The notes under the pieces: generated by a model
What the model was told of the DNA's origin: nothing
What the model saw: only the letters and a program-made list of their open reading frames with translations
Databases searched by the model: none
Source of the DNA: Acidobacteriota bacterium
Lineage (GTDB): Bacteria > Acidobacteriota > UBA890 > WLXD01
DNA length: 64,000 nucleotides
Assembly: GCA_965248695.1 (NCBI GenBank)
Contig: CBDFKD010000002.1
Span: 1-64,000, forward strand
Direction: 5' to 3'
Made by a program: the position numbers and the translations under genes
Part shown: positions 6,701 through 25,227 of the stretch, one piece after another
Numbering within the stretch: the first letter of the stretch is position 1
Layout: each line of letters begins with the position of its first letter

Positions 6701-9543
6701 GGAAGCGCCGACTCGATCAGCTCGATGTTAGCGACCGCCTCTTTGGCCGCTTCCGTTGCTCGTAACAACGGCGGCTTTATCGCATCGAGTGCCGCGATCG
6801 TGTCCGAGGTCTCAAGGCCCAACTCGCGGATCCGATCTTGTAGCTCCAACCACGCCTTAGAAAGTTGCTCTACCGGCACCCTCCCGTCCGCGGTGGCGTC
6901 TCGCAGCTTATCGATTTCCTTGTCTATGTCTTCAGCGAGTGTGAAGCCGCTCAGCGCCTCGGCGAGAGCCTCAGCATCCTTCTTCGCGTCGATTAGCGGG
7001 GGCTTCAAAAGATCCAGAGCGGCCACTAGCTCCGGCGTCTCCAGCCCCGCGTTGCGAAGCTGATCACGCAACGACACCCATTGGGCGGCAAGCTGCTCGG
7101 CGGGTACCTCGCCGAGCTCGGTGGCGGTCCGCAGCTTGTCGATCTCCTTGGCCGCGTCTTCGGCCGTGAAGAAACCCTGCAGCGCCTCGGCGAGAGCCTT
7201 GGCTTCCTCTTCAGCATCAACCAGCGGGGGCTTCAAAAGATCCAGAGCGGCCACTAGCTCCGGCGTCTCCAGCCCCGCGTTGCGAAGCTGATCACGCAAC
7301 GACACCCATTGGGCGGCAAGCTGCTCGGCGGGTACCTCGCTGATCTCGGTGGCGATCCGCAGCTTATCGATCTCCTTGGATACGTCGGCTGCGGTGACGA
7401 AGCCCTTCAGCACTTCAGCGGCTTCCTCGGCCGTTGGAATCAACCTGCCGGTAGCGGCGTTAACTCTCCGCAGCACGCCCTCGACTTCTTTGTAGCGGAA
7501 GTCGACCTTCTCACCGGCCTGGGCCATCGCTTCGAGCTGCTGATTCGCCTGCATAACCGCATCCCTGAGCTTCCCGGTCACGTTCTTGACCTGGACCATC
7601 TGACCGTCGAGCTCCTCGTAGCGGAAGCCGACCTCGCGGCCCAGGGCGCTCATTTCAACCAACTTGTCGTTAGCGATCTGGATCTGCTTGGACACCGGCG
7701 TCATTTTGGCGGCGAAGCGGGTGGCCGCCTGGTCCAGAGACGCGTAGGCTTCCTTGGCCTCCTTCGACCACGTCACGTTTTCCTTGAGCCACTTCCATGC
7801 GTTTCTCATTGGGGTGATCGTTGCGTTGATCGCCTGGCGCCATTTGTCTAATTCGTTTTCGATTGAGGCTTTGATCACTTTGCGAAGCGGCTCGAATTTC
7901 GCCACCAAAAGGCCGATGGTCACGATCCAGCCCAACGGTCCGGTTAAAAACTTCAACCCTGCTCGCAGCGCTACTACCAGGCCCTTACCCAGCAGCGGGG
8001 TGATCTTCAGAATGCTCTTGCCCATCGACCCGAGCACCCCACTGAACCGCGAGAGCCGACCCGGAGCGGTAATGAAAGCAGTATCGAACTTCTTCACACC
8101 GGCGGTGAACTGCCCCATCGCGTTGCGACCCTGCAACGTCTTGGTCATCACGTCCGGCAGCAGACGAACGAGAGGACCCAGACGGGAAGCGCTGACGGTG
8201 AGTACAGCGTTGTTGGCCGCATGAGCTGCGGTGTTGGCGACCACCGACGCCGTCATACGGCCAAACGCCCCCGTCACCGTGCCCGCGGCCGTTACTAGCG
8301 ATCCCATAACGATCAGCACCGGCCCCGCCGCCGCCGCCAGCCCCGCTAACATCACCGCCGCCGTCTGCACCGGTACCGGCAGCTTGCCGAACCACTCCGC
8401 GCCCCGGAGCACCATGTCCAACAACGGCCGCAAACTCTCCCCGGCGCGCATCACGATCGGCAACAGCACGTCACCGAGATTCTGGGCCGCCACGATCACC
8501 TGCTGCTTCAGCTGCTCCCAGGCGAACCCGGCGGCATTGAGCCCCTTGGTTTGTTCATCGAAGGCCTCATCAGTGGCGTTCAGCGAGTCGCGCATCTCCA
8601 GGAGCTTTTCGTCGAACGCCCCGGACTGCGCCCCGGCGATGGAGGCGATACCGGCCCACGACTCGGTCGCATCCCACAGCTTGATCAGCTCGTTGGTGTT
8701 GCCGCCCGTCTGCTGCAGCAACGCATCGAGCGTGCCCTTGTAGCCAAGCGTTTCAAGCGCCGCCTCACCGGTGTTAAAGCCCATCTGCGCCAACGTGGCC
8801 GACATCGCGTCGCTCGGTTTCTGCAACCCCACGAGCGAGGCACGCAACGCAGTGGACACCTCCGACGCCTGGCCGATCACGCCCGTGTTGGTGGCAAACA
8901 CGGCGTTCAGTTCCTCTTGGGAGATCTTCAGTTGCGCCGTAATGGGCGCCACCTTGCCGATAGCCGCGGCCAGCTCCGGGAAGGTCGTTTGACCGAGCCG
9001 TACCGTGGTGAAGGCCAAGTCGGAGGCCTTCGACACCGCCTCCGCGCTCGTGTCGCCGTAGGCTTTGGTTACCGCGCTCGTTAAGTTGATCGCCTCGGTC
9101 GTCGTGGCCATGCCAGCGGCAGCGGCCTTTGCGTTGATCTCCAAGATTCGGGCCGTGTCGGACGTGTCACCGAACGCACTCACCGTTTGGTACAGACCTG
9201 CGGTGAGGTCCGCCGTGCTCGTGCCCGTGGCGATCGCCATGTCCTGCACCGAGCGCTTCAGCTCGTTGACACGCTCGGTGTTGCCGGGGATCAGCGTGGC
9301 GACGTTGGCCATGCCCTTGTTGAAGTCGATCGCCGCCTTAATCGCCGCGATGCCCACCCCAGCAATCGGCAACGTCAGGCCGGCCGTGAGCTTCACCCCG
9401 GCGCTCTGCATCTGGGAACCGACCTGCTTGAACTTGTCTCCGGTCATCTCCAGCTTCTGCGCCGCGATCGCAAGCGGCTTGGAGAAGTCGTCCATCAGGA
9501 CGATCTTGCCGAGCACCTGGCCGATGCTGACACCCGCCGGCAT
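3742..9543 (-). CDS. Phage tail tape measure protein
   Basis: 1933 aa, Ala-rich and helical; TP901-type N-terminal core (FNKGMANVATL..GQTTFPELAAAIGKVAP); follows the tail chaperones. Confidence 0.95.
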   Translation of the reverse strand: MPAGVSIGQVLGKIVLMDDFSKPLAIAAQKLEMTGDKFKQVGSQMQSAGVKLTAGLTLPIAGVGIAAIKAAIDFNKGMANVATLIPGNTERVNELKRSVQDMAIATGTSTADLTAGLYQTVSAFGDTSDTARILEINAKAAAAGMATTTEAINLTSAVTKAYGDTSAEAVSKASDLAFTTVRLGQTTFPELAAAIGKVAPITAQLKISQEELNAVFATNTGVIGQASEVSTALRASLVGLQKPSDAMSATLAQMGFNTGEAALETLGYKGTLDALLQQTGGNTNELIKLWDATESWAGIASIAGAQSGAFDEKLLEMRDSLNATDEAFDEQTKGLNAAGFAWEQLKQQVIVAAQNLGDVLLPIVMRAGESLRPLLDMVLRGAEWFGKLPVPVQTAAVMLAGLAAAAGPVLIVMGSLVTAAGTVTGAFGRMTASVVANTAAHAANNAVLTVSASRLGPLVRLLPDVMTKTLQGRNAMGQFTAGVKKFDTAFITAPGRLSRFSGVLGSMGKSILKITPLLGKGLVVALRAGLKFLTGPLGWIVTIGLLVAKFEPLRKVIKASIENELDKWRQAINATITPMRNAWKWLKENVTWSKEAKEAYASLDQAATRFAAKMTPVSKQIQIANDKLVEMSALGREVGFRYEELDGQMVQVKNVTGKLRDAVMQANQQLEAMAQAGEKVDFRYKEVEGVLRRVNAATGRLIPTAEEAAEVLKGFVTAADVSKEIDKLRIATEISEVPAEQLAAQWVSLRDQLRNAGLETPELVAALDLLKPPLVDAEEEAKALAEALQGFFTAEDAAKEIDKLRTATELGEVPAEQLAAQWVSLRDQLRNAGLETPELVAALDLLKPPLIDAKKDAEALAEALSGFTLAEDIDKEIDKLRDATADGRVPVEQLSKAWLELQDRIRELGLETSDTIAALDAIKPPLLRATEAAKEAVANIELIESALPTPTRVAPLNVLEKALENLGLQSVNVDVLTQRFADLQLAVQQSNVAPSDLKRIYDELYRTFQQLGPLTDEQAAAFERLRGQIEPGIDAVTQAAERLGLKAINIDELNQSFVDLESVVAAGGFAPSDLKRIYDDLYRTFQQLGLLTPELEAAFKRLRGQIETPPDLSFFGKIGEAVVNWGRQVVDVFSNAFGVQIPAAVTAGINAMIGSVQNFLDAAKGVPVTFQQWAAVGLSAIAALAGAIKGLFGKANAADHVAEQFGIALSDGLAKAIDDLAASQFQGNLDAAFRSMMAQAIQEASITTEAELSKWVTLTHQILSSVDEGFLSLQQAVESMSDSWLALVPAMEATGASAMGLQAQISDLISRGVDLDTLATQLQPVMEALFGSGVEGAQDLVDWLNTMGVSIDGVATSAEAAVAAIEAAFGAGDFSAMSDAIQDAIAAGVDLSSLEGLLTDVMGQYKDLVLGASQEVVAGVEALFATVRREVEVLTEDGSTQTIEQLRLTKREAEFAASALLVTFEQMRAAGVPLTEIFEAMGDQITQLADNFQGKMPPVLAEVDSLFSAMQGTAAKAIEKVDAIGGSIGALGQMGLLSAGQLDFFGDKIDRAYAKLIEGGAGSEQAMALLGPQLRQLIDLSEQYGFKIDRNTRALIDQADASGLLPPAIEPVEDIFGDIRSVIILLAESLGVQVPAAIKQAADAAQEAENRIKSPFKRAFMEMAADAGWAARETRGVWRQLSPDLRRVFEEGGEVGRAQFKQIAMAAGLSAAQVRQLWGSDMRTVEDIFGHAGTTGEEENVKVGEAAEREAKRSAREMRIAFIDRVIPALRRIGQVGEIEAKRLGDAFVGAAKDSAAEWEATQRATVGNSSILDISRRGIEAAEVLGGSQVEAAMRAAHTWSLASDTIARSMNRTESAVSAIPSSVSVSVGTGPRDSIPAPVAAASAPAPSRRPDETLLRELLHELRALRQDQRTYLPDALRTAARHGKQTSS
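6223..6570. repeat. Internal tape-measure duplication, period 231 bp (77 aa)
   Basis: APSDLKRIYDxLYRTFQQLGxLTxExxAAFxRLRGQIE occurs twice (copies start at 6223 and 6454). Confidence 0.9.
6995..7340. repeat. Internal tape-measure duplication, period 228 bp (76 aa), with 118 bp identical
   Basis: 6995-7112 is identical to 7223-7340; a more diverged unit lies at ~6770-6990. Confidence 0.95.
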
Positions 9544-9900
9544 CTACTCAGTCTCCTTGCGGGCGCACAGGTGGCTTCGGATGCGCGCCTTGAGCACACG
9601 CCAATCCAGCCGCTTGCGCGGTTTGGCCGCTCCGTCCCAGCGGAGCAGGAAGTCCTCCAGCTTCAACGGGACGCGCTGGCGCTTGGGGTCGCGGTTGATC
9701 TCGGCCCGCATCCACAGATCGCGTGCAGCGTGCACGTCGATCCGCTCCTCGAGCGGAGGCTCCAGGGCCAGGAACGCCGCCCACATCCGAAACTGGGATG
9801 CCGGCATTCGAGCCCCGAGGCCCGGCACATCCCACTGACCGAAGTGCCAGGCAAGTCGATACAGCAGGCGAAGCGACGGGCTCCGCCTTAGTCTTCCCCC
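9544..9900 (-). CDS. Tail assembly chaperone T segment (C-terminal part of the GT fusion, reached by -1 frameshift)
   Basis: -1 frame reads GRLRRSPSLRLLYRLAWHFGQWDVPGLGARMPASQFRMWAAF.., typical of gpT; directly precedes the tape measure. Confidence 0.8.
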   Translation of the reverse strand, partial: GGRLRRSPSLRLLYRLAWHFGQWDVPGLGARMPASQFRMWAAFLALEPPLEERIDVHAARDLWMRAEINRDPKRQRVPLKLEDFLLRWDGAAKPRKRLDWRVLKARIRSHLCARKETE

Positions 9901-10349
9901 TCATCGCCTCCTTCCGTTTCCTCGGCGATCTCCAACAGCCTCGCCTTGACGGCCCCGTCTTGTTCCTGCTCGGCGTGCTGGCGCAGCAGCGCGGCGAGCT
10001 GGGCGTTGTCGGAGCTGATGCCGTTGAGCTGCATGGCGAAGTCGGAGATGCGGCGCACCGCCTTGAGCGACTTACCACCCAGCGTCTCCAACTGCGCCTT
10101 GGAGGCGAACATGCGCGAGCCGTCGGGGTTGATGACCGAGCTGGCAACGACGTGCAGGACCGCTTGCTTCTGGTTCTTTTGGAACATCTCGGCGAAGTTC
10201 AGCGAATCGTTGGTAGACCACGGCTTCATCAGCACCGAGCCGCCCCATTCCGGCACGAACAGTTCCATTTGCTCGATGTCCTGGGCGTCCTCGACCTGCT
10301 CGAAGCTGAGCGGTGCTTCTTTCTGGCCCTTCTTGGTCTGTTTGCTCAT
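9888..10349 (-). CDS. Tail assembly chaperone gpG-like
   Basis: 153 aa with VPEWGGSV motif, between the major tail and tape measure genes. Confidence 0.85.
   Translation of the reverse strand: MSKQTKKGQKEAPLSFEQVEDAQDIEQMELFVPEWGGSVLMKPWSTNDSLNFAEMFQKNQKQAVLHVVASSVINPDGSRMFASKAQLETLGGKSLKAVRRISDFAMQLNGISSDNAQLAALLRQHAEQEQDGAVKARLLEIAEETEGGDEGED
9894..9900 (-). promoter_or_regulatory. Programmed -1 frameshift slippery site G GGG GAA
   Basis: GAG GGG GAA GAC TAA ends gpG; a -1-frame TGA just upstream restricts the shift to this site; GGGGGAA is the heptamer reported for mycobacteriophage L5. Confidence 0.8.
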
Positions 10350-10352
10350 GTC

Positions 10353-10775
10353 TTACACGTTGGTGTCGATGTAGGCGCCCGACGGCCGCACGGTGATGTC
10401 CTCGGTGAGCTTGTTGTCCATGTCGGCCTGGAGCCCGCCCATCGCGCTGATGAAGCCGGAGAAGATGAGCTCCGAGTTGTCCGGGTAGGTGATGCGCCAG
10501 CCGTCCGTCTGGCCAGCCTGAAACGATGCTTCCAGACTCCCATAGGAGGCGCCGTCCGGGTCAACCTGAACGTTGAGGGTCACCGACTCGCGCCGCTCGA
10601 TACCGCCCGGGATGTAGTAGTCGATGTCGTCGGCCAGCGAGGTCGTATCGATCTCCTCGCGCGATCGCGCCGGCGAGTTTACGCTCAGCAGCTCGCCAAC
10701 GTTGACGAATGCGCCCGCGCCGTTGTCTTGGCGGGCAATGATGGTTCCGTGGGATCCGAGTGCGTTGGTACCCAT
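10353..10775 (-). CDS. Major tail tube protein
   Basis: Start MGTNALGSHG with AGGGAG RBS; EEIDTTSL..YIPG..WRITYPD..FSGFI is a lambda-like tube signature. Confidence 0.88.
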   Translation of the reverse strand: MGTNALGSHGTIIARQDNGAGAFVNVGELLSVNSPARSREEIDTTSLADDIDYYIPGGIERRESVTLNVQVDPDGASYGSLEASFQAGQTDGWRITYPDNSELIFSGFISAMGGLQADMDNKLTEDITVRPSGAYIDTNV

Positions 10776-10799
10776 TTTCAGTTGCTCCCTGTTGTTGAT

Positions 10800-10955
10800 G
10801 GATATTCCGTGTTTTCGGGCCACAGAAAAGAGCGCCTTACCGGTGCGGTATCCGCACAGGCAGGGCGCCCTCTCCTGCATGCCCTTGTCGGGTGTCGCGC
10901 TCCTGAGCTAGGAGTTGTCGGCGCGGGGATCAGCCGCGCCCTAGCGACAACCGGT
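10800..10955 (-). ncRNA. Candidate structured cis-regulatory RNA in the leader of the major tail gene
   Basis: 13-bp stem 10824-10836/10864-10876 with three G-U pairs valid only on the minus strand; hairpins 10843-10857, 10900-10914 and 10914-10951. Confidence 0.5.
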
Positions 10956-10965
10956 ATTCGTTACC

Positions 10966-11385
10966 TCATGCGGCGGTCACCTCTGTGTTGCGAATGTCCA
11001 GGGCCACGTGCGCGTCCCACGCCATGCCCCGAGCCGCGGTGTAGGAGGCGGCTCGGGTGGTGATCTGTGCCGCCGGCCGATGCGTATCGCGGATCTGGTT
11101 GTGCGTGTCCAGTGGAGATGCGCCACCCGACGGCATGATCAGCAGATACGGCCCGTCCCCCGTTGGAATGACCGCTTTCGGACCGGCGAAGATGTCTCGG
11201 TTTTCCACTGGTGTCCAGGTGCCCACCCCTGCGTTGACCAACAATCCGATCAGCTCCTCCTCGAACTGCTCAGTGGGGTCGCACTCGGCCCGTACGTTGA
11301 AGGCGAACAGCACGCGGTCTGAATCATCCAGCGCCAGCGGAAACGGATCAGTGTCCGGTTTTAGCGACAGGTAGGTGGTGCTCAT
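10966..11385 (-). CDS. Tail terminator/minor capsid-like connector protein
   Basis: Start MSTTYLS overlaps the upstream stop (ATGA); RPAAQITTRAASY motif; position before the major tail gene. Confidence 0.7.
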   Translation of the reverse strand: MSTTYLSLKPDTDPFPLALDDSDRVLFAFNVRAECDPTEQFEEELIGLLVNAGVGTWTPVENRDIFAGPKAVIPTGDGPYLLIMPSGGASPLDTHNQIRDTHRPAAQITTRAASYTAARGMAWDAHVALDIRNTEVTAA

Positions 11386-11804
11386 GATGCCGCCTTCAGC
11401 TTGTCGAGTTCGGCGGCGATCTCGCGCGCCATACTTGGCACCGCGGCCATCAGGGGCTTCTCCAAGTATTTCCAACTCTTGCCGGCCCGGTGCGACAAGT
11501 CAGGGTTTTCATGTTGCACCAAGGCATACGGCGCTTCCGGTCCGCCATACGCGAGCGTCACCTCGACTTGCCGGCCTCGGCGCTCCGGCAGCTGCACATG
11601 TCCGGTGCTCTTGAGCGCTCCGTCCCGGACCGGCACGTAGTTGTCCTTGGAGTCGGCCATGACGTTTTCGGCCTGGCGATAGGCTGCTGCTTCCACTTGC
11701 ACGACCGTGTTGGCTATCAGGCCCTTGAGTGCCTTGTGCATCTGGTCAAAGCCTTCGAAGCCCACCTTGACGAAGCGTCCCCTGGAGTCACGCAGTCTTG
11801 CCAT
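11382..11804 (-). CDS. HK97 gp10-like tail completion protein
   Basis: VPVRDGALKSTG..YALVQHE..KYLEKP motifs. Confidence 0.8.
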   Translation of the reverse strand: MARLRDSRGRFVKVGFEGFDQMHKALKGLIANTVVQVEAAAYRQAENVMADSKDNYVPVRDGALKSTGHVQLPERRGRQVEVTLAYGGPEAPYALVQHENPDLSHRAGKSWKYLEKPLMAAVPSMAREIAAELDKLKAAS

Positions 11805-11832
11805 TAGCCACTGCCCCTGTCCGTTGCCTGGA

Positions 11833-13020
11833 TCATGAGGCCACCTTCAGCACGGGCTTTTGCAGCACCGACTTCACGGCTTGTACGAACGCCGCGCCGA
11901 CGTTGTCCCAGCGGTAACAGTCGCTAGATGCCAGCTTCATTCCCGCGCACGACAGCTCGTGGCGCAACGCGCCATCCCGGTACAGCCTGTCGAGCGCCGC
12001 GATGCACTGCGCCTTGTCGGCGATGCCACCGATGGCATTGATGCCGTTGGGCGTGGCGATGGTAGATGTACACGGCACCCGCAGCGCGGCGCCCTGGGTC
12101 CACTCCCCGAGTGCGGACCAGTCGGGAACGATCTGCGGGATGCCGCAGGCCATTCCCTCCAGCTGCGTGAGCCCGAACCCCTCGCCCTGCGTGGTGGTGA
12201 TCATCGCGTCCATGCACGCATACATCCACGCAAGCGCTCCCTCCGGGGCCCCGTTGCCGATGTCCGGTTCCGACAGCACCACCCGCCCGGCCAGCCCGTA
12301 ATAATCGGCCAGCTGCCGAAGGTCGTAGCCTTGGTCGCCGGTCGGACACACGTGCAAAAATAACGCCGCATCCTCAATGCCATGCTCCTGAACCCACTCG
12401 GCAAAGTACTGGATCGTGAGATCGAGGCGCTTGCGGGGCTGGTTGCGGTTCACGTTGCCGACGATGAAGGAGTCGCTGAACCGCTCGATGCCGATGCGTT
12501 CCTTGGAGCGCGCCTCCTTCCGATCCCGAGCTTGGAACACCTCCAAGTCCACGCCGAGCGGCACCACGGCGCTGGCACCTTCGTAGCCTCCAGAGCGCGC
12601 CTCGTTCGCCGCGAACTGGGTCCAGAAGACGGCGAGGTCCAAGCCCCCCAACGCGCCGCCGCGGCAGTTGTTACCGTCCACCGCAATCCACCCGACCGTG
12701 ACGCCCTGGTAGTCGGCGCACTCCAGCTGTCTCATGTACGCGGGGATGTTCCAGGGGTCGTTGAGTAGCACCACGACATCCGGATCGTGCTCGCGAACCA
12801 TGTGCGGCAAGCGGACCGTCCCGAACGCATCCTCACGGCGGAACGGCCGCGCGGCGGGGTAGACAGGGTAGTCGTAATCGTGCGGGTCACCCCCGTGGTT
12901 GATGCCGAGCACGCGCACCTCCCAGCCGCGAGCGTGCAGCGCGTTGCAGGCGGCGCGGGTGCAGCGCTCAAACCCCGTGGCCACCCCGGCATCACCGACC
13001 CACAGTACCTTCCGATTCAC
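11833..13020 (-). CDS. GT4-family (GT-B) glycosyltransferase, phage-encoded
   Basis: TGFER N-terminus; NVNRNQPRKRLD; EGFGLTQLEGMACG (EX7E motif). Confidence 0.9.
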   Translation of the reverse strand: MNRKVLWVGDAGVATGFERCTRAACNALHARGWEVRVLGINHGGDPHDYDYPVYPAARPFRREDAFGTVRLPHMVREHDPDVVVLLNDPWNIPAYMRQLECADYQGVTVGWIAVDGNNCRGGALGGLDLAVFWTQFAANEARSGGYEGASAVVPLGVDLEVFQARDRKEARSKERIGIERFSDSFIVGNVNRNQPRKRLDLTIQYFAEWVQEHGIEDAALFLHVCPTGDQGYDLRQLADYYGLAGRVVLSEPDIGNGAPEGALAWMYACMDAMITTTQGEGFGLTQLEGMACGIPQIVPDWSALGEWTQGAALRVPCTSTIATPNGINAIGGIADKAQCIAALDRLYRDGALRHELSCAGMKLASSDCYRWDNVGAAFVQAVKSVLQKPVLKVAS

Positions 13021-13949
13021 GCTGCGACTCCCTGGTGAATAGCTTGCGCCGTCGCGTGGAGACTTTCTTTGTCCGGGTAGATACCTCGACCATCTCGACC
13101 GTCGATCAGGTGCACCGCCTCACCGTCAAGGATGAAGTTCCACGGCTGGATATCGCCATGGGGCACCTCGGGTAGCGTCGTCCGCCGCACCAACTTAGCC
13201 ACGGCCTGGCCGCTGGGGTAGATGCCGCCGAGCAGCTGATAGGTGCGGAGATTGATGCCGGCGAGCCATTCCCGCTCCTGGCCCTTGCGCTCAAAGTGCA
13301 CACGCTTGTCATGCGGTGTGGAGGTAATCGACACGGGGCCCAGCGGCACCGTGGCCGCCACATCCAGGTAGGCGCGGCTGATGGTGCTCTTGGGCCTCTC
13401 AAACAGCCACAGGGGCCGTTGGGCATCGCTCACGTGGCTGGGCGTTGTTGTCAACAGGCGACCGGCGCGCTGCTTGAAGAACGCGTGGATGCCCGACACG
13501 GCCGCCTGGTTGCAGGCGCCGGTGTCGTCGGGACTGGGCGTCTCGATGATCACGTTGTCACCGAGCTGCAGTACGGCCCCTGCCGCGCGCCGCCAGTCTA
13601 CAAAGTGATGCAACACGTTCAGCGCCAGCACCACATCGAAGTGCTCGCACGTGGCCAGCTGCTCCAGCTCAGAGGCCGTAACGTGATGCTGCAAAAGGAT
13701 CGTTCGGGGTGCGTCGTTGCGCTCGCACAGTGGCAAAAGCCGCGTTCCGCCCTCCACCATTACGCAGACTGCGTCGTAATCCTGTCCGATGCGGAAGCTG
13801 AAGTAGCCCTCCGATGCGCCGATGTCCAGCACGGTAATGCGGCGGCTGTAGCCATCCAGCACACAGCGAATCGCCCCATAGCGTGACGCGCACTGTCTTT
13901 GTCCACGCTGAGCCAGCGAGCCCCGAACCCATGTGTCTTGGTACGGCAT
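13017..13949 (-). CDS. WbdD-like class I SAM methyltransferase with C-terminal kinase-like segment
   Basis: VLDIGASEGYFS, FDVVLALNVLHH, VIIE, HVSDAQRPLWL; C-terminal HGDIQPWNFILD..HLID catalytic-loop-like motif. Confidence 0.75.
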   Translation of the reverse strand: MPYQDTWVRGSLAQRGQRQCASRYGAIRCVLDGYSRRITVLDIGASEGYFSFRIGQDYDAVCVMVEGGTRLLPLCERNDAPRTILLQHHVTASELEQLATCEHFDVVLALNVLHHFVDWRRAAGAVLQLGDNVIIETPSPDDTGACNQAAVSGIHAFFKQRAGRLLTTTPSHVSDAQRPLWLFERPKSTISRAYLDVAATVPLGPVSITSTPHDKRVHFERKGQEREWLAGINLRTYQLLGGIYPSGQAVAKLVRRTTLPEVPHGDIQPWNFILDGEAVHLIDGRDGRGIYPDKESLHATAQAIHQGVAA

Positions 13950-13963
13950 CAGCTAACCACCCT

Positions 13964-14296
13964 TCAGAAAAACACTTTGTCGTGGTGGGGACCGTTTTCG
14001 TCCCGCACCGGAAAGGCGCGGCGCACGATCACCTCGCGGTCCTGGAAGTCTTCCGGCAGCGTCAGCCGATCGCCCTGCTTGACCCCATAGGATCCGGCGA
14101 AGATGACCTTACCCTTGGTGACGAACTCCTGGCCGTCCTCGCCGATCATGCGCTCGCCACCAGCACCCACCCGCGCGGACCGATCCACTTTGTCCTCGTA
14201 GGTCGGATCCCCGAAGCCGTCGGTTCCGGTTAAGGTTTCGACAGCGACCGTATCGGACAACATGTCGCTAAACTGTCCGGCGATCGCGTCCGTCAT
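13964..14296 (-). CDS. Head closure/head-tail joining protein
   Basis: 110 aa with TDGFGDPTY; follows the adaptor gene. Confidence 0.7.
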   Translation of the reverse strand: MTDAIAGQFSDMLSDTVAVETLTGTDGFGDPTYEDKVDRSARVGAGGERMIGEDGQEFVTKGKVIFAGSYGVKQGDRLTLPEDFQDREVIVRRAFPVRDENGPHHDKVFF

Positions 14297-14638
14297 CTAC
14301 ACAACTCGGAAGTGGCGATTGTTATTGGCCGCCTGAGTTCCACGCTGCTTGAACTCGTTGATCTGCTCCCGCAGCGCCTCTGCGACGCTTGTCTCCATGC
14401 CCCACCGGAGCCTGAAGTCATCGACTGTCTTTTCCATCACGCCCTCGCCCTTGCCAGCCCAATGGCTCAGCAGTGTCGACAGTGCCCGAGCCGCGGCGTA
14501 GTAGACGTTCGCCTCGGTAGCCAGGAACACGTCCAGCTCCTCGTCCTGGAACAGGGCGCTGTCGGTATCGGTGTCCTGGATCAACAAGCGCAGCGTATTC
14601 CGATCGGTCCCGGAGCCCGCGGTATAGGTGGTCGTCAT
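14297..14638 (-). CDS. Head-tail adaptor protein
   Basis: LRLLIQDTD..FQDEELDVFL..YYAAA motif, immediately after the capsid gene. Confidence 0.75.
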   Translation of the reverse strand: MTTTYTAGSGTDRNTLRLLIQDTDTDSALFQDEELDVFLATEANVYYAAARALSTLLSHWAGKGEGVMEKTVDDFRLRWGMETSVAEALREQINEFKQRGTQAANNNRHFRVV

Positions 14639-14698
14639 CCCGCCTCCAGGGCACGGGGCGCGCCTTCGTTTGACGCGCCCCGACCCCTACTTTCAGCA

Positions 14699-15742
14699 TC
14701 AGGTGATGTTGCCGGCGCACACACCGGATTTGCTGTTGTAGTCGCTCTTGACGCGCGGAACGATGCAAGCGAAGACCGTCCACTTCACCGTCCACTCCAT
14801 CTCTGGAGCCGGCATGATCGCCACGGGCTGCTGCCCCACGATCACGTCGCACACGTCGCTGGTGTCCTGCATCAGCAGCGTACGGTCGTCCGGTAGCAGG
14901 TCCGCCGTGCCGACGCGCAGATTCCGGCCACCGAACGTGAACGACTCCAACACCTCCTGGATGGAGCGGTCGACGGTGGCAGTACCGTCACTCCAACGCT
15001 TCTGCAGCTTCGCCCCGTAGGGCGTGGGTACGTACAGCGTGTACGGGCCGTAGAACTTGTCCGTTGACAGCACGGCGCGCATCGCGAGCACATCGGTCTC
15101 GATCTCCGCACCGGTGTGGCCGGCGTCGTCCCAGGCCTCGCCCCCTGTATATGCCTGCGTGTTGGTGGTGCCCAACAGCCCGGGGCTGGAGTTGCCACCC
15201 ACGGTCGGTCCGCCATTAATGATGGCGTCCTCGATCGCGTAGTTGACGTTGCGCACCGCCTGCTCGATCTCGTCGGTGTCCAGTGGACGACCGGCGCGCT
15301 CGGCAGCAGCCAACTCGCGAACGTTGAACGAGAACTCGTCCCACGTGACGTAGATCGGCACGGTGTAGGGCGTCTTGTCCTGCAATCCGCCCTCGCCCTT
15401 CGCCCCCGGGATCATGCCTCGCTGCGCCGCCCTCGACTCGCCGACCTTGTGCGAGGTCAGCTCGAGGATCGACAGCCAGTTCGACATCGACACAGGGTTC
15501 TGGTCGATTCGATCGGCAGCAACCACGAGCCCCTCTCGGCCGACGCGAACGATCGCGTCGTCGATGAACTCGTTGCTGTACTGCCACATCGGACCGAGGC
15601 CGCGCATCTGTGCCTCGCGGTACTGCGCGGCCCGCATCGCACCGACATTACCTTCGTGCCGGAGCAGCTGCGACAGGGACGCCCCGACAGCGGCTGGAGC
15701 GTTTTCGAACGTTGACATCATCTGTGCTCCAGGAGCCATCAC
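14699..15742 (-). CDS. Major capsid protein, HK97 fold, encapsulin/Linocin-M18-like
   Basis: PIYVTWDEFSFNVRELAAAER.GRPLDT, EDAIING and GPYTLYVP motifs; 347 aa in the capsid position. Confidence 0.85.
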   Translation of the reverse strand: MMAPGAQMMSTFENAPAAVGASLSQLLRHEGNVGAMRAAQYREAQMRGLGPMWQYSNEFIDDAIVRVGREGLVVAADRIDQNPVSMSNWLSILELTSHKVGESRAAQRGMIPGAKGEGGLQDKTPYTVPIYVTWDEFSFNVRELAAAERAGRPLDTDEIEQAVRNVNYAIEDAIINGGPTVGGNSSPGLLGTTNTQAYTGGEAWDDAGHTGAEIETDVLAMRAVLSTDKFYGPYTLYVPTPYGAKLQKRWSDGTATVDRSIQEVLESFTFGGRNLRVGTADLLPDDRTLLMQDTSDVCDVIVGQQPVAIMPAPEMEWTVKWTVFACIVPRVKSDYNSKSGVCAGNIT

Positions 15743-16191
15743 AGCACCTCCACGTACAGCCGCGTGTCTTGGGTGACAGAGCCGGGGCTGGAGGCGGCAA
15801 CGAATCCGCCCGGTCCGCTCGTGTACGCCTTCAGCTTGCCGTCACCGTTGGACTGCAGCAGCGCACCCTGGGTGATGTCCTGGCCTGACGGGATGACCCC
15901 GTAGAACCGATCACCTGGGTACAAGTAGCCGACCTTGACCAGATCGCCCGCCGCGTAGGCGGTGTCGACCCCGTGGTTCAGCTCGATCTCGTCCAGAGCC
16001 ACCGCCCGTGCGGCGGGATCGTCGGCCGAGTCATGCACACCCCACTTCAGGGCGCCGGAGTCATCGTGCAGCTGTACCAGCATCCCGGGGGTGATCGACT
16101 CCGCCGCGGCCAGGTCGTTGCGGATGCGCTCCGCGGGGATCTGTGACGGCGAAATCGCGATCGTGTTGGGGGGGCGCTTTGTGATCGCCAT
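15739..16191 (-). CDS. Capsid decoration/cement protein
   Basis: 150 aa with AAESITPGMLV and LQSNGDGKL; between scaffold and capsid genes. Confidence 0.7.
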   Translation of the reverse strand: MAITKRPPNTIAISPSQIPAERIRNDLAAAESITPGMLVQLHDDSGALKWGVHDSADDPAARAVALDEIELNHGVDTAYAAGDLVKVGYLYPGDRFYGVIPSGQDITQGALLQSNGDGKLKAYTSGPGGFVAASSPGSVTQDTRLYVEVL

Positions 16192-16192
16192 G

Positions 16193-17635
16193 TCAGTTCA
16201 CCTCCGCCTGCTTGCTCAGGCCGTAGGGGTCGGGAGGCTGGAAACGGGACAGGTCCTCGCCACCGTTAGGTAGCGCGCGAGCCGCGAACGTCGGCTCGGC
16301 AACAGCCTCGGCCCCCGCCAGCTTGGCGATGACCTCAAGCTCTTCAACGTCCTTGTCCTGCAGGTACTTGTCGGGGCACTCGGTTCCCGCCGCCTGGATG
16401 GCCGCGATGAGCTGCTCCTTGCGAGCGGCACGAATGGCCTTGCGCTCATCGAGGGCCGCCCGCATCTCGCGATACGTCTCCTCGTCCACCTGGTGCATCT
16501 TGGCCCCGGTCGGCTCGGCGCCGGCAAGCTCCTCCTTGCGCTTGTCGGCGGCCACGTACCGCTCGGCCTGCTTGCTAAGCTCCTCGGTGCCCTCGGCCAG
16601 GCTGTGGGACGCCTCGATGCGCTCCACCGACAGACCCGACAGATACTCCTCGTCCGCCTCGGTGAACGGGCTGTAAGCGTGTTGAATGAGCGCTCCGATG
16701 CGCCCCTTGAGATCGGTCATTTCAGGCCCTCCTTGTTCTGAATCCTGGGCGGCTTGACGGCCACCACACTCACAATGCTCGGAATCAGGGCAGCCGCATG
16801 GGCTCGCCCCTGCTCCCACCAGGTCCTCCTCCAACAGGTCGCGGATCCCCGCCATGACGCGTCGCAAAAGCGACGGCTTGTCGGTTCGGTTCATGTTCTC
16901 GTCCTTCGTGGCTTCCGATTCATGTGCTTCATCAAGCTCCAGGTCCTCGTTGGTAGCCACCGGTTCATGTGCCATGAGCTTGTCCTTGGTCAGATCTGAT
17001 TCGTGTGCCTCATCGAGCTCCAATCCATCGGCGCACACCCGCATGGCCACGCGCGGAGCCCCACACCCCATCTCGTTGTCGCAGGCGCCGAGCACTCCTT
17101 CCGGGAGCATGGCGAGGTGGTCGGAGCCAATGTCCGTCCAGGTTGCGACGTACTCGTTGCTGTCGATCTGTCCGGGGGTGTTGTTCGTTCTCACCCATGC
17201 CCCGATGGACACCTCGATCGGTTCCCCCACGAGCGCTCGTTCGAGTACACCTTCCGCATCCGGCCCAACGGCCTTGGCCTTGTCGGCATCCAGCCACGCC
17301 TCGACCACCAGGCGGTTGTTGCGAAAGCTCGGATTGGCGATGCGACCGAAACACGCCCGCTCGCAGGTACCCGGGTCGTTAGCTGATACCGGCTCCCCAG
17401 AAGCATCCATGGGGTGGTCACCAACGACAGGACGACCGTTCCATTCCGAGTGTGACCGCTCGATCACGGATGCGGGAACGAGCTCCGGCCCTGAGGCGTT
17501 GGCGGCAACAATCACCTGGTCGCCCACCAGCGCCACCACCGGAACCACGACGTGCTCACGCCCCTCGAAGCTCGCCGTACGAACCTCCGCATCCACCGCG
17601 CCGCGCAGCGTCAGGCCACGGAACACCCTAGCCAT
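16193..17635 (-). CDS. DUF2213-like prohead protease fused to an acidic coiled-coil scaffold
   Basis: NGRPVVGDHP, EVSIG, DHLAMLPEGVLGAC..GCG; likely start MARVFRG. Confidence 0.8.
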   Translation of the reverse strand: MARVFRGLTLRGAVDAEVRTASFEGREHVVVPVVALVGDQVIVAANASGPELVPASVIERSHSEWNGRPVVGDHPMDASGEPVSANDPGTCERACFGRIANPSFRNNRLVVEAWLDADKAKAVGPDAEGVLERALVGEPIEVSIGAWVRTNNTPGQIDSNEYVATWTDIGSDHLAMLPEGVLGACDNEMGCGAPRVAMRVCADGLELDEAHESDLTKDKLMAHEPVATNEDLELDEAHESEATKDENMNRTDKPSLLRRVMAGIRDLLEEDLVGAGASPCGCPDSEHCECGGRQAAQDSEQGGPEMTDLKGRIGALIQHAYSPFTEADEEYLSGLSVERIEASHSLAEGTEELSKQAERYVAADKRKEELAGAEPTGAKMHQVDEETYREMRAALDERKAIRAARKEQLIAAIQAAGTECPDKYLQDKDVEELEVIAKLAGAEAVAEPTFAARALPNGGEDLSRFQPPDPYGLSKQAEVN

Positions 17636-19949
17636 CGCGCCCCTCCAGCACCAAGATCTCCGCGCAGCGACAGGAAGCATGTAGCGGCGGCCCGATCACC
17701 CCATTGCCGTAAGGCTGACCGATTCGGGCGCGTTGGCCGTCCATAGCCTCACACTCGACACATACGCGCTCGTCCGAGGTATCGGACCACTGTCGTTGCT
17801 GATCGGCACGCAGCAGACCGCTGTCCCGTGCCTGCTCCCAGAGCTGTTGCTGGCCCGCATTGGAGGCGGCGATCGTCTCGGTCCGCGCAATCGTTCGCGC
17901 CCGCAGGTTCAGCTGCATGCCCCGGTACTGCGCCAGACGGGTCTCGATCCATTCCTCGGTTGCGCCCGCCTCGGGAATGCGAGCACGGAAACCGGCTGTC
18001 TCTCGAACACCTTCTCGGGGGCCAAAGCGGGTCACGAGAGAGCCGGGATCGGCACCCAGCAGCTCCTCACGTAACGTGGCGACGGCTTGCGCCTGGCCGC
18101 TGGTCAACCCGACGACCTGTCGGATCTGTCGCGCCGCTTCGCCCGGCGGGACGCCTTGGGATAAGGCGGCAGAGATTTCCTCACGAAGCGCAACCAGCGT
18201 CGCCGTCGTAATCGAGATGCCGGCCGTCTCCTCTTGGATCAGGGCAGCAGCACGGCTCTCGGCCCACAGCACCGCCTTCGGGTTGTCCTCATCAAACACC
18301 ATCTGCGCCTGCGCGGCGCGAAGGTTCGTGGCGCGGTTCAGTACCCCAGCCGCAGCGTTGCCGCCCGCGATCAGCGTCCCAAGCAGTGCCTGTGCGATGG
18401 CCTCCTGCTGCTGGGTCATCGCCCCCACCGCTGCCCGCGCGATGCCCACGGCACCAGAGCGGTCCGCGCTCCCCAGCGCGCCTTCGAGCGCTTCCACGTC
18501 CAACGCCTCGCGCACCGACTCCAGAGCCGAGGCCACGACAGAAGCAACCGCATCGACGTTGTCGTCGGCGGCACGGTGGATCGCCTTCCAGGACGGCTCC
18601 TGGGGTGGCTCCTCGGTACGTTCAAACTCCTGTGCCGCTCGCGCACCCACTGACCCGGATGCAACCTCCTCAAAAGGTACAAGATCCAGGTACAGGTCGC
18701 GGATCTCGTCGCGCGAGATCACCTCCGCCCCATGGCGTCGGTTCACCTCCGCGGCTTTGGCGGCAAGCTCCATGCGCTCCCGCTCATCTAGATCGCGGAT
18801 CGAGGGCCACACCACCCGATACTCCGATGGCTCCGGCAACGCCCCGTATTCAATGAGCCGCCCCACGAACGGCCGCACCATGCGAGGCTCGGCGTACTGT
18901 TCGCGCCGGTCCCGGGCGCGACGCTCGAAGTTGGAGCGGTCCTGGGAGGAGGCCAACTCGCCCCGCTCCGATCCCGTCAGCATGCGCTTGGGGATCTTCG
19001 TGGCGCCGGCGATCAGTGTGAGGATCGCGTCGGCCGGGTCGCGCATCCCAGCTACCGACACCGGGAACTGCTCCACTTCCACGCCCTGCGTCAGGAAGTA
19101 GCGGCGCAGGCCGTGTTGAAACTCGTCGAACTGCTCCTCGATACCCCTGGCGTCCGCTTCGTCAAACTTCATCTCCGCCGGGACCTTGATGTGGTTGCCC
19201 GGCTGTGCGCGCTGCCAGAATGCCTCGGCACCCGCGCCGATGACCTTGTCCAGATCATCGAGCCGGTTCCACACCTTCTGCAGCCGCGGCAGCCCGTACA
19301 CGTCGTCAGCCAGCAGCCCGTCCGCAATGTGGATCATTCGGGACCAATGCACGACCGGCTTCTTGCCCTTGGCCAGCTGGATCCGGTACCGGATGGGCAT
19401 GCCGTAGCGCGGATCCGCGGGATTGCTCTCCAGATCCTTTATCTCGTCGAACTCCACGTCCTTTTCGCCAAACACCGACAGCACCGCCACCTGCTCGGGG
19501 TTGGTGATCTGAGGCATTTCCTGTGACAACTCGCCCGGTGCACCGATCAGGATCACGGCGTAACGTCCTAGCCCTGCGAGGATGTCGGCGCGCAGAAACA
19601 TCTCCCAGACCCGCAGCCTCTCGGCGAGCTGTTGCCATGCGCGCTCGAAGTCGGTCGTGACCGCCGGGTCTTCGTCCTCGATCAGCGTGGCTCCACCGCG
19701 CCACGTCGCCTCCGGGTACGCCGTCACGATCGTGGAGGCGAGGCCGCCCCGCTCGTACCGGTTCCAGTAGTCGGCTGCGACCAGCTTTTGCTTGTAGCCG
19801 AGGGCGCGGGCCAGATCGCGGGCATTCTGGAACGTCAGTCCGTGCCGAGAGGCAAACTCGTAGCGCTCCACGAGCGTGGAGGCGGCCGCGCGGAGTGCCG
19901 CCGCGTCGACGGTCGGATCAGTAGAGGTTGCTGCCCCGTTGGTGCCCAC
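17628..19949 (-). CDS. Portal protein (DUF1073-like) fused to a MuF/SPP1 gp7-like head morphogenesis domain
   Basis: VHWSRMIH, IPKRMLTGSERGELASSQD (portal); RARTIARTE, DERVCVEC..DG, PPLHASCRC (MuF) in one 773-aa frame. Confidence 0.85.
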   Translation of the reverse strand: MGTNGAATSTDPTVDAAALRAAASTLVERYEFASRHGLTFQNARDLARALGYKQKLVAADYWNRYERGGLASTIVTAYPEATWRGGATLIEDEDPAVTTDFERAWQQLAERLRVWEMFLRADILAGLGRYAVILIGAPGELSQEMPQITNPEQVAVLSVFGEKDVEFDEIKDLESNPADPRYGMPIRYRIQLAKGKKPVVHWSRMIHIADGLLADDVYGLPRLQKVWNRLDDLDKVIGAGAEAFWQRAQPGNHIKVPAEMKFDEADARGIEEQFDEFQHGLRRYFLTQGVEVEQFPVSVAGMRDPADAILTLIAGATKIPKRMLTGSERGELASSQDRSNFERRARDRREQYAEPRMVRPFVGRLIEYGALPEPSEYRVVWPSIRDLDERERMELAAKAAEVNRRHGAEVISRDEIRDLYLDLVPFEEVASGSVGARAAQEFERTEEPPQEPSWKAIHRAADDNVDAVASVVASALESVREALDVEALEGALGSADRSGAVGIARAAVGAMTQQQEAIAQALLGTLIAGGNAAAGVLNRATNLRAAQAQMVFDEDNPKAVLWAESRAAALIQEETAGISITTATLVALREEISAALSQGVPPGEAARQIRQVVGLTSGQAQAVATLREELLGADPGSLVTRFGPREGVRETAGFRARIPEAGATEEWIETRLAQYRGMQLNLRARTIARTETIAASNAGQQQLWEQARDSGLLRADQQRQWSDTSDERVCVECEAMDGQRARIGQPYGNGVIGPPLHASCRCAEILVLEGRDG

Positions 19950-20486: not shown

Positions 20487-20751
20487 GGCGAGTGACTACC
20501 TCAAAACACCCGAAGAGGCCGCTGCCTATCTGAACGCGGCCCTGGAAGAAATGGGCGACGATCCACGCCTGCTTATGAAAGCATTTCGTAACGTCGCCGA
20601 GGCGCACGGCGGTGTGTCCGCGCTTGCCCGCCAAGCCAAGCTGAATCGAGTAGCGCTGTCCCGGGCCTTGTCGGGCCGGAGAAATCCACGACTCGACACG
20701 CTCGCGAGAGTATCAGCCGCGTGCGGCGTCAAGCTTCGGTTCTCAGCATAG
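20467..20751 (+). CDS. Addiction module antitoxin (HTH, HigA-like)
   Basis: SDYLKTPEEAAAYLNAALE..GGVSALARQAKLNR..LSGRRNPRLDTL; GTG start overlaps the toxin. Confidence 0.92.
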   Translation: MPVKEHKASDYLKTPEEAAAYLNAALEEMGDDPRLLMKAFRNVAEAHGGVSALARQAKLNRVALSRALSGRRNPRLDTLARVSAACGVKLRFSA

Positions 20752-20958
20752 CCGTTGATCCTCCGGTGTCACCACCTCCGCCAGCTCCGACTCGATGATG
20801 CGGATGTACCTCCGCTTGCCGCTGTCATGGCGCGGGCCGACGCGGACGTGTCCGATGACGCCTTTGTCGATCCACCGATACAGGGTACCCACGGCGATGT
20901 GGTAGCGATCGGCAGCCTCCGAGACAGTCAGAAGAGTTTCGGTATGAACGGTCATCAC
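20743..20958 (-). CDS. Excisionase/MerR-like helix-turn-helix protein
   Basis: LLTVSEAADRYHIAVGTLYRWIDKG; coupled to the terL stop. Confidence 0.85.
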   Translation of the reverse strand: MMTVHTETLLTVSEAADRYHIAVGTLYRWIDKGVIGHVRVGPRHDSGKRRYIRIIESELAEVVTPEDQRLC

Positions 20959-24988: not shown

Positions 24989-25227
24989 AGCGCCCTCACG
25001 CGAGCACCCCCGAAATCAGCGTGATACCGCTTTGGTACCGATTCCTATTCCCCAGGAGTGGTTTTGCTGGGCCTGACCCCCTGAAAACAGGCCGTATTTG
25101 TTGGTGCAGATGTAGCAACGGTTTGTTACGATCAGGTTCGCGCGCGAATGTCGCTGCCCCCTCGCCGCCCATCTGGCGGCGTCGCCCCTCGCGGAACAGA
25201 AAGAAACGAGGTAATGCGAGAAACGCG

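Follow-up and report, generated by a model that had tools for sequence, protein, structure and literature searches.

A WbdD-like methyltransferase-kinase and a glycosyltransferase inside a prophage head-tail operon: a candidate glycan-building and glycan-capping module

A prophage of an Acidobacteriota bacterium (GTDB lineage Bacteria; Acidobacteriota; UBA890; WLXD01) carries two genes of apparent glycan metabolism in the middle of its head-tail operon, which raises the question of what such enzymes do among genes for virion assembly. The prophage lies in the window, the 64,000-nucleotide (nt) stretch of DNA analysed here, which is positions 1 to 64,000 of contig CBDFKD010000002.1 (assembly GCA_965248695.1). 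At 11833..13949 on the minus strand, a gene for a 310-residue protein with a methyltransferase domain and a kinase-like domain is followed by a gene for a 395-residue glycosyltransferase. An earlier note, made from the letters alone, had described two co-oriented, coupled genes with a 4-nt overlap and gaps of 14 and 28 nt to their neighbours, and the junctions read exactly so: between the TGA that ends the upstream gene and the ATG at 13949 of the 310-residue gene stands a 14-nt spacer, and 28 nt separate the glycosyltransferase stop from the next ATG (11804). The pair comprises the following features:

13950..13963, minus strand: 14-nt spacer before the gene of the 310-residue protein, with an AGGGTGG Shine-Dalgarno-like run (read from the sequence)
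13017..13949, minus strand: 310-residue bifunctional protein, a WbdD-like S-adenosylmethionine (SAM) methyltransferase plus a minimal kinase-like domain (open reading frame (ORF), ATG at 13949)
13395..13949, minus strand: methyltransferase domain, residues 1-185 (phrog_9361; Pfam Methyltransf_11; VIA-align against WbdD)
13020..13394, minus strand: minimal protein-kinase-like domain, residues 186-310 (domain model, VIA search, invariant motif residues)
13017..13020, minus strand: GTGA stop/start overlap of 4 nt joining the pair (read from the sequence)
11833..13020, minus strand: 395-residue GT4 (GT-B) glycosyltransferase (ORF with GTG start; Pfam, phrog_2170)

With moderate confidence, the pair is interpreted as a phage module for building and capping a glycan, with expression alongside the virion genes; the phage probably covers its own particles with a sugar layer that it makes and caps. 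WbdD from Escherichia coli O9a (PDB codes 4AZS, 4AZW, 4AX8, 4UW0) acts as a bifunctional kinase/methyltransferase and terminates the polyprenol-linked polymannose O polysaccharide: its kinase phosphorylates the terminal sugar and its methyltransferase methylates that phosphate, by which extension is blocked (PMC3482155).

All that Pfam recognizes in the 310-residue protein is a generic class I SAM methyltransferase (Methyltransf_11 above cut-off, residues 36-152), and PHROGs assigns residues 1-184 to phrog_9361, ‘methyltransferase’ (E 8.6e-29). A single-sequence search of all solved structures places WbdD first (E 0.014), with a small second stretch on HGDIQPWN. When a profile of 49 homologues, 302-327 residues long, is compared with the PDB, WbdD is matched at E 2.6e-21 (79 bits) in separate methyltransferase and kinase-loop stretches, versus 5.7e-4 for the next entry, and because of this gap the resemblance is far beyond chance. 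The AlphaFold (AF2) model built on the homologue alignment has a predicted local distance difference test score (pLDDT) of 96.3 and a predicted template modelling score of 0.94. The earlier note had proposed Foldseek as one of its comparisons and would have taken the lack of a structural match to WbdD as a refutation; the five best Foldseek matches are all WbdD entries (E 4.9e-12 to 8.8e-10), followed by a match at 3.8e-7. The VIA-align superposition on WbdD gives Z 15.6-15.7 and a root-mean-square deviation of 2.6-2.7 over 181-184 residues, against Z 12.5 for the best unrelated methyltransferase. The order of domains, methyltransferase and then kinase, is the same as in WbdD, as the note had held, and WbdD is the closest relative by both sequence and fold.

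The similarity extends to residues of known role. The WbdD mutants Y16F, H132A, H133A and R203A keep phosphorylation and lose methylation (PMC3482155); the equivalent residues here are Y3 (97% conserved), H114 (97%), H115 (91%) and R178 (73%), all conservation percentages being those of the 49-sequence alignment. The sulphate-binding pocket of WbdD is formed by R31, C33, N34, Q35, R36, F194, D195 and H197 (PMC3482155), and four of these anion-pocket residues are matched, R31 by R18 (91%), C33 by C20 (87%), R36 by R23 (100%) and H197 by H172 (100%), with N34 and Q35 replaced by A21 and S22 and with F194 and D195 outside the mapping. The WbdD alignments are printed in SEQRES numbering, which equals that of the paper plus 13, and the offset was checked against the VIA residue ranges. 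The motifs listed in the earlier note occur in the order it gave, YQ at 3-4, R18.C20..R23, VLDIGASEGYFS, FDVVLALNVLHH, VIIE, H172.S...RP.W, HGDIQPWN and LID, and the motifs that it gave for WbdD agree with the WbdD residues in the HMMER alignments. Since the methylation-required residues and four of the anion-pocket residues map and are conserved, the part of WbdD that handles the phosphorylated acceptor is kept, beyond the SAM-binding core. The 310-residue protein is a true WbdD relative.

The VIA alignment of the whole model covered about residues 1-190, and for that reason the C-terminal part was folded separately. Residues 186-310 are conserved over their full length: at least 120 near-length matches, most of 300-330 residues, cover 78-100% of the query. 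All 49 sequences have the same residue at H264, D266, N271, I282 and D283, and D266, N271 and D283 do not vary in a wider set of 94 homologues either. H264, D266, N271 and D283 align with H349, D351, N356 and D369 of WbdD, and W270 (93% conserved) with W355. In WbdD, D351 is catalytic, the mutants D351A and D351E being dead, and N356 and D369 are magnesium ligands (PMC3482155). Folded alone on the 94-sequence alignment, the domain has a pLDDT of 94.6; in its model, three N-lobe strands precede a pair of short helices and the catalytic loop, after which come two short strands, the metal-binding Asp and a last helix; a C helix is absent. The earlier note had named the absence of a kinase fold as fatal to its proposal; in a VIA search of 48,161 representative chains all of the best 50 rows are of the kinase fold (Z 6.2-7.5, 103-119 of the 125 residues aligned), with Rad53, Rio2, Rio1, NleH1 and OspG at the head of the list. 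Pfam APH is above cut-off in one homologue (P0016) and in gp12 of mycobacteriophage Thibault, a separate kinase. Because the list of fold matches is uniform and the motif invariant, the Z values being middling, the model supports the view that the C-terminal 125 residues form a stripped-down protein-kinase-like domain with an intact catalytic loop. The WbdD region after residue 459, which holds the coiled-coil and trimerisation part (460-708), is absent, and the protein ends at residue 310, as expected for the minimal WbdD without a coiled-coil ruler and with a very short kinase that had been predicted.

The 395-residue protein is matched above cut-off by Pfam Glycos_transf_1, Glyco_trans_1_4 and Glyco_transf_4, which places it in GT4 with a GT-B fold, and by phrog_2170 (E 2.2e-26). 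Its closest solved relative is the chlorovirus NY-2A protein B736L (PDB code 3oy2), similar over residues 10-386 (E 9.5e-14). Among the nucleotides tested, B736L bound GDP-mannose best, and it has no established acceptor (PMC9614988). The family is large, with 1,565 proteins at E ≤ 0.001 among 8,000 candidates scored, and many relatives are 50-60% identical and lie on contigs of about 45-65 kilobases. Seven records of cultured phages carry a relative, namely those of Synechococcus phages S-CBS4 and S-EIVl, Tetrasphaera phage TJE1, Microcystis phage Mae-JY09 and Pontimonas phage phiPsal1. In these phages the gene adjoins portal or terminase genes; in S-CBS4 the portal gene, the glycosyltransferase relative, a second glycosyltransferase and a SAM methyltransferase follow in order. 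A complex prediction for the glycosyltransferase and the 310-residue protein, both entered as alignments, scored 0.00 with no verdict and is used neither way.

At E ≤ 0.001 the 310-residue family counts about 1,050 cluster representatives. In IMG/VR, 68 loci were found, of which 46 hold the kinase part (match to query residue 283 or beyond); 31 of these 46 were examined, obvious duplicates and three loci with the gene missed by ORF picking being left out, and PHROGs, supplemented in part by Pfam, served to annotate four genes on each side. In 17 of the 31 loci a glycosyltransferase is fused or at most four genes away (phrog_2170 in 12 of them; these are raw counts), virion genes for capsid, portal, terminase, adaptor, neck or tail lie equally near in 19, and 13 loci have both. 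One locus (L006) repeats the order of the window, with adaptor, small gene, methyltransferase-kinase, glycosyltransferase and neck, and four others (L023, L025, L032, L038) show capsid, glycosyltransferase, methyltransferase-kinase, adaptor, terminator and tail tube.

Gene fusions provide independent support for a tie between the 310-residue family and glycosyltransferases. A single 661-residue ORF (L008) joins methyltransferase, kinase and GT4, and a 1,471-residue ORF between terminase and portal (L017:2192-6607) contains GT1, an FkbM methyltransferase, the WbdD-like methyltransferase-kinase and another methyltransferase. GT1 or GT2 domains are present in 11 of 19 longer homologues, up to a multi-glycosyltransferase protein of 2,346 residues. 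These repeated fusions argue against a kinase/methyltransferase directed at proteins, which would modify virion or host proteins independently of the adjacent glycosyltransferase. Such an activity would suit the fold matches, which are Ser/Thr/Tyr protein kinases and effector kinases, and the annotation of mycobacteriophage homologues as serine/threonine kinases; it is nevertheless improbable, the solved protein that is by far the closest being a sugar kinase/phosphate methyltransferase. At two further viral loci (L015, L029) relatives of the 310-residue gene adjoin sulfotransferase-family, sialyltransferase-like and arabinose-5-phosphate isomerase-like genes and extra methyltransferases, neighbours that hint at more elaborate phage glycan decoration.

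In the window, Pfam and PHROGs annotation places the pair within a complete siphovirus morphogenesis operon on the minus strand. Its other genes are:

20955-22406, minus strand: large terminase
17628-19949, minus strand: portal fused to a Mu-F-like domain, 773 residues (Phage_portal_3 at residues 64-401; Phage_Mu_F at 661-763)
16193-17680, minus strand: protease/scaffold-like protein
15739-16191, minus strand: head decoration
14699-15742, minus strand: major capsid
14297-14638, minus strand: connector protein, first of two
13964-14296, minus strand: head-tail connector, 110 residues, upstream flank of the pair (phrog_3881, E 3.3e-7)
11382-11804, minus strand: neck / tail-completion (gp10-like, Neck1) gene, 140 residues, downstream flank (phrog_5 E 1.2e-4; phrog_556 E 9.1e-5; Pfam Minor_capsid_2 below cut-off)
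10966-11475, minus strand: tail terminator
10353-10880, minus strand: tail tube
9888-10349, minus strand: chaperone
3742-9543, minus strand: tape measure, 1933 residues

The setting in a head-tail module that had been proposed is thus found, with virion genes all around and a gp10-like neck gene (phrog_5) as one flank, while the name ‘head-closure’ given to the upstream gene is plausible, its match being to a head-tail connector family. A search of 9500-16500 for consensus signals yielded no promoter-like site and, on the coding strand, no terminator-like site; the four terminator-like sites found are all on the opposite strand, where shuffled sequences give 3.7. The GC content and the GC content at third codon positions (GC3) are 0.635/0.768 for the 310-residue gene and 0.661/0.846 for the glycosyltransferase gene, both within the range of the neighbours. 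The position in a late operon, the coupling of the genes and the lack of own signals fit expression alongside the structural genes. Four entries from one study came up in a search for sequencing runs, none of them recorded as RNA.

The 64 kb of the window open a 5.76-Mb contig, base 1 of which falls inside the element, and host-type ABC-transporter genes begin at 25021; this identifies the element as a prophage, the other end of which is outside the window. Near its inner end, before the transporter genes, are an N6/N4 DNA methylase (23323-24570, minus strand) and a small helix-turn-helix protein (20743-20958, minus strand). The 773-residue portal protein (17628-19949, minus strand) bears its Mu-F-like head-morphogenesis domain at the C-terminus, a combination usually found as two separate genes. 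The 1933-residue tape measure (3742-9543, minus strand) contains about three tandem copies of a unit of about 95 residues (...KEIDKLR.AT...VP.EQL...L.LET.....ALD..KPPL...), followed by a second repeat pair (...APSDLKRIYD.LYRTFQQLG.LT...). Between tail tube and tape measure, the successive ORFs 9888-10349 and 9544-9828 (minus strand) occupy a position typical of a frameshifted tail assembly chaperone pair, for which they are candidates.

Among 40 related genomes searched, one full-length homologue of the 310-residue protein was found (E 3.0e-133), in a genome from a different genus within the same family; 15 further matches are weak (E 6.8e-8 or worse), and those listed, 18 in number, are mostly of the SAM-binding region alone. 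The homologue belongs to a second prophage (L102, G007:C2:491000-510900) that is syntenic from portal to tape measure and keeps both genes of the pair; the methyltransferase-kinase proteins are 89% identical, the glycosyltransferases 93% and the capsid proteins 98.6%. Pairwise Nei-Gojobori ratios of nonsynonymous to synonymous divergence, for which five gene rows were kept and the neck gene was left out as out of register, are 0.28 for the methyltransferase-kinase and 0.15 for the glycosyltransferase, so both genes are under purifying selection. Over 9500-16200 of the window, synonymous divergence from the second prophage is 0.22-0.36 for connector, methyltransferase-kinase and glycosyltransferase, 0.04 for the capsid and 0.11 for the tail tube. 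This mosaic divergence suggests that the glycan module has a recombination history unlike that of its neighbours. A recent foreign insertion (moron) was considered and rejected, given GC and GC3 values like those of the neighbours, the lack of an own promoter or coding-strand terminator and the synteny kept in the second genome.

A number of observations, set out here and in the following three paragraphs, weigh against the reading of the pair as a module that builds and caps a glycan. The operon has one glycosyltransferase, which need not build a chain. The kinase part is only 125 residues long, Pfam finds no kinase family in the 310-residue protein of the window, and Foldseek with the domain alone returns no match at E ≤ 0.001, the rows listed being kinases including WbdD. 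The VIA Z values of 6.2-7.5 are below 8, a level that according to the tool may reflect a mere common arrangement, and in sequence searches the kinase stretch alone is weak (i-Evalue 0.078; hhalign 76%). No equivalents of Y230, R270 or E274 of WbdD are placed in the alignments or the model, and no ATP-anchoring Lys-Glu pair is identified in the domain; K215 (81%) and R226 (89%), conserved basic residues on N-lobe strands, are at most candidates. The short length, the lacking Lys-Glu pair, the missing Pfam match and the best Z of 7.5 would suit a kinase-like domain that is dead and acts as a binding module only, in which case the enzyme would methylate a sugar hydroxyl or another group and the cap would be methyl, not methyl-phosphate. 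A preprint on an Asgard-archaeal virus invokes a WbdD-like methyltransferase alone. Against a dead domain stand the catalytic Asp, the magnesium-binding Asn and the DFG-type Asp, none of which varies among the 94 sequences; the methyltransferase also retains the His-His-Arg cluster that surrounds the phosphate acceptor in WbdD, and mycobacteriophages keep a separate kinase gene beside the methyltransferase, which makes this explanation quite unlikely.

The association with virion and glycosyltransferase genes is not universal either. The gene pair, for which the earlier note had proposed a survey of head-tail modules in phage genomes, recurs at the counts given above, but 12 of the 31 viral loci have no virion gene and 14 have no glycosyltransferase within four genes. 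The set also contains near-duplicates (L009/L012, L010/L011, L023/L025/L038, L030/L036, L041/L042, L047/L048), and the counts therefore overstate independence. Four loci (L009, L012, L033, L043) lie amid replication/recombination, clamp-loader, PhoH or DNA-methylase genes. Neighbours of this kind, and the well-known existence of phage glycosyltransferases that act on DNA, would fit a hypermodification pathway in which phage DNA or nucleotide sugars are modified. This is highly improbable for the window, where the pair stands amid head, neck and tail genes, as do the genes of the syntenic relative and of most of the informative loci, and the glycosyltransferase relatives in cultured phages adjoin portal or terminase genes.

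Relatives of the 310-residue protein are also cellular, with 23 loci in metagenome-assembled genomes (MAGs) of Pseudomonadota, Desulfobacterota, Chlamydiota and Dependentiae, and in Zhengella. In the 10 MAG loci annotated, no Pfam match to a phage family was found in any, and a glycosyltransferase is nearby or fused in 6. Because the family occurs in cellular loci with glycosyltransferases and without phage Pfam matches, it is a general glycan-modifying module recruited by phages, not a phage-specific one. The pair might serve to manipulate host glycans: at the cytoplasmic face, it would add a sugar to a lipid-linked host polysaccharide (O antigen, capsule or cell-wall glycopolymer) and cap it; premature capping would then change the cell surface for superinfection exclusion or progeny release. 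WbdD itself caps a polyprenol-linked O polysaccharide (PMC3482155), and the cellular relatives adjoin glycosyltransferases, a NeuB/CMP-sugar cluster and a WecA/MraY-type transferase in 6 of the 10 MAG loci. In the window, however, neither the 310- nor the 395-residue protein has a membrane-span-like stretch (maximum 19-residue Kyte-Doolittle means of 1.02 and 0.92), and the C-terminal region of WbdD (460-708) is missing. The genes stand inside the head-tail operon without own signals, not at the prophage end or near lysogeny genes, and 19 of the 31 viral relatives adjoin virion genes. Host-glycan manipulation is considered unlikely. Full-length relatives also occur in obligate intracellular bacteria (L072, L082, L084, L086, L071 and L087, in MAGs of Chlamydiota, Dependentiae and others), one of them next to genes for a leucine-rich-repeat protein and an ATP/ADP translocase.

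To our knowledge, a few mycobacteriophages are the only phages whose particles have been shown, and this recently, to be glycosylated; there, glycosylation blunts recognition by antibodies, and gp110 of Che8 and gp38 of Corndog are reportedly the glycosyltransferases required. No homologue of the 310-residue protein is present in the glycosylated phages Che8 and Corndog; Che8 gp108 and Corndog gp34/gp35 are unrelated to it. The glycosyltransferase of the window is unrelated to Che8 gp110 (hhalign 0.1%) and gp108 (0.2%), two of the three annotated glycosyltransferases of Che8; the comparison covered these two. According to citing papers, Freeman et al. 2023 describe phage glycosyltransferases that modify capsid and tail tube proteins of Che8, Corndog and Myrna (PMC13445384, PMC12363180, PMC11256854).

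Other mycobacteriophages carry closer counterparts. A tblastn search of the 310-residue protein against 50,697 phage records matched 45, all of them Mycobacterium phages and in the methyltransferase part only. In Thibault (cluster J), the stretch from major head to connector encodes a glycosyltransferase, a kinase (164 residues), a methyltransferase (176 residues) and three more glycosyltransferases (gp11-16), and Tweety (cluster F) has kinase, methyltransferase and glycosyltransferase genes (gp102-104) at the right genome end. Thibault gp13 matches the methyltransferase domain with an hhalign probability of 99.8% (E 3.9e-30), and gp12 the kinase loop with 76% (E 2.3e-5). The mycobacteriophage insertion of kinase, methyltransferase and glycosyltransferase genes was noted by Pope et al. 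2013, who state its specific roles as not known (PMC3706429). The degree of novelty assumed in the earlier note has therefore to be lowered, as the cluster J/F phages already possess annotated sets of this kind. The literature as searched, which did not include Freeman et al. 2023, contains no link of phage kinase/methyltransferase genes to WbdD-type capping, and the preprint on the Asgard-archaeal virus proposes the WbdD-like methyltransferase alone.

For the preferred reading, a phage module that makes and caps a glycan, virion glycosylation, late expression, both enzyme activities, the methyl-phosphate product, the sugar and the acceptor are what we infer, in the following scheme. The soluble GT4 enzyme would transfer a hexose, possibly mannose from GDP-mannose by analogy with B736L, to an acceptor in the infected cell. 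The acceptor would most likely be one of the virion proteins, for example that of the capsid, the decoration or the tail tube, and the enzymes would act in the cytoplasm late in infection, as the position of the genes and the mycobacteriophage precedent suggest. By the biochemistry of WbdD, the minimal kinase domain would phosphorylate a hydroxyl of the terminal sugar with ATP and the methyltransferase domain would methylate the sugar phosphate with SAM. The resulting methyl-phosphate cap would halt extension and alter the particle surface. With a single glycosyltransferase, the ‘chain’ may consist of one or few sugars. More speculatively, in the absence of a coiled-coil ruler its length might be set by the enzyme ratio, which the stop/start overlap would fix. 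As a broader and tentative hypothesis, possible rather than probable, many tailed phages of very different hosts would carry short virion glycans with a methyl-phosphate cap made by such a 310-residue ‘mini-WbdD’; no active protein-kinase-like domain known would be smaller than its kinase of 125 residues, which would work only because it is packed against the methyltransferase, and glycan length would be set by a translationally fixed ratio of terminator to glycosyltransferase and no ruler.

If the proposed function is correct, WbdD-type capping within head-tail modules would add a chain-terminating, charge-altering step to the biology of phage glycosylation. Virion glycosylation would also extend to phages of other phyla, given the approximately 1,050 family representatives, the 68 viral loci and the glycosyltransferase relatives in cyanophages and actinophages. 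The protein would be a natural minimal WbdD without a ruler, whose kinase-like domain is shorter than the shortest matched chains (160 and 169 residues), and thus a compact model for studying the minimal requirements of a kinase fold. The cluster J and F genes for kinase and methyltransferase, annotated since 2013 without a role, would gain a testable function, in phages that can be grown on a laboratory strain.

Compared with known systems, the cluster J and F mycobacteriophages have a homologous methyltransferase, a kinase with the same catalytic loop and adjacent glycosyltransferases, and the cluster J set likewise stands between capsid and connector. They differ from the window in encoding kinase and methyltransferase by two genes of reversed order and in having glycosyltransferases from other families (GT2 in the cases that Pfam detects), actinobacterial hosts and, in cluster F, a set at the genome end. 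The virion glycosylation of Che8, Corndog and Myrna is similar in concept, a phage-encoded glycosyltransferase being involved, here a GT4 enzyme, whereas no homologous enzyme is common to the window and Che8 among those compared (the 310-residue protein; the glycosyltransferase against gp108 and gp110). The chlorovirus proteins B736L and PBCV-1 A546L (PDB codes 3OY2 and 3OY7) resemble the 395-residue enzyme as virus-encoded GT-B proteins of nearly full-length similarity, but come from a eukaryotic giant virus, have no established activity or acceptor and show only modest sequence similarity to it.

The kinase-like domain shares with the protein-kinase-like (PKL) superfamily the bilobal fold, the HxD...N catalytic loop and the metal-binding Asp, at the modest Z of 6.2-7.5. 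Its best fold matches are the minimal protein kinases Rio1/Rio2, NleH1 and OspG (Z 7.0-7.5, 108-113 residues aligned), whose chains have 160-269 residues and phosphorylate proteins, while the domain of the window has 125 residues and is fused to a methyltransferase. With WbdD, the closest solved relative by profile and fold, the 310-residue protein shares the domain order, the N-terminal YQ, the His-His and Arg used for phosphate methylation, four anion-pocket residues, the HxDxxPWN loop of the kinase and the Asp of LID(F)G. It differs in size (310 versus 708 residues, with a kinase of 125 versus about 250 residues; WbdD 211-459, with the G-rich loop that bears Y230), in having no equivalents of Y230, E274 and R270, the last two of which serve the second sugar, and in ending before the coiled-coil/trimer region. 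Its genes belong to a phage late operon with virion neighbours and not to an ABC-transporter-dependent O-polysaccharide cluster, and identity in the aligned structures is only 16-22%. Because three features that define WbdD are missing, namely a kinase domain of full size, the coiled-coil region and an O-antigen setting, the 310-residue protein is filed as a distinct minimal branch of WbdD-type enzymes.

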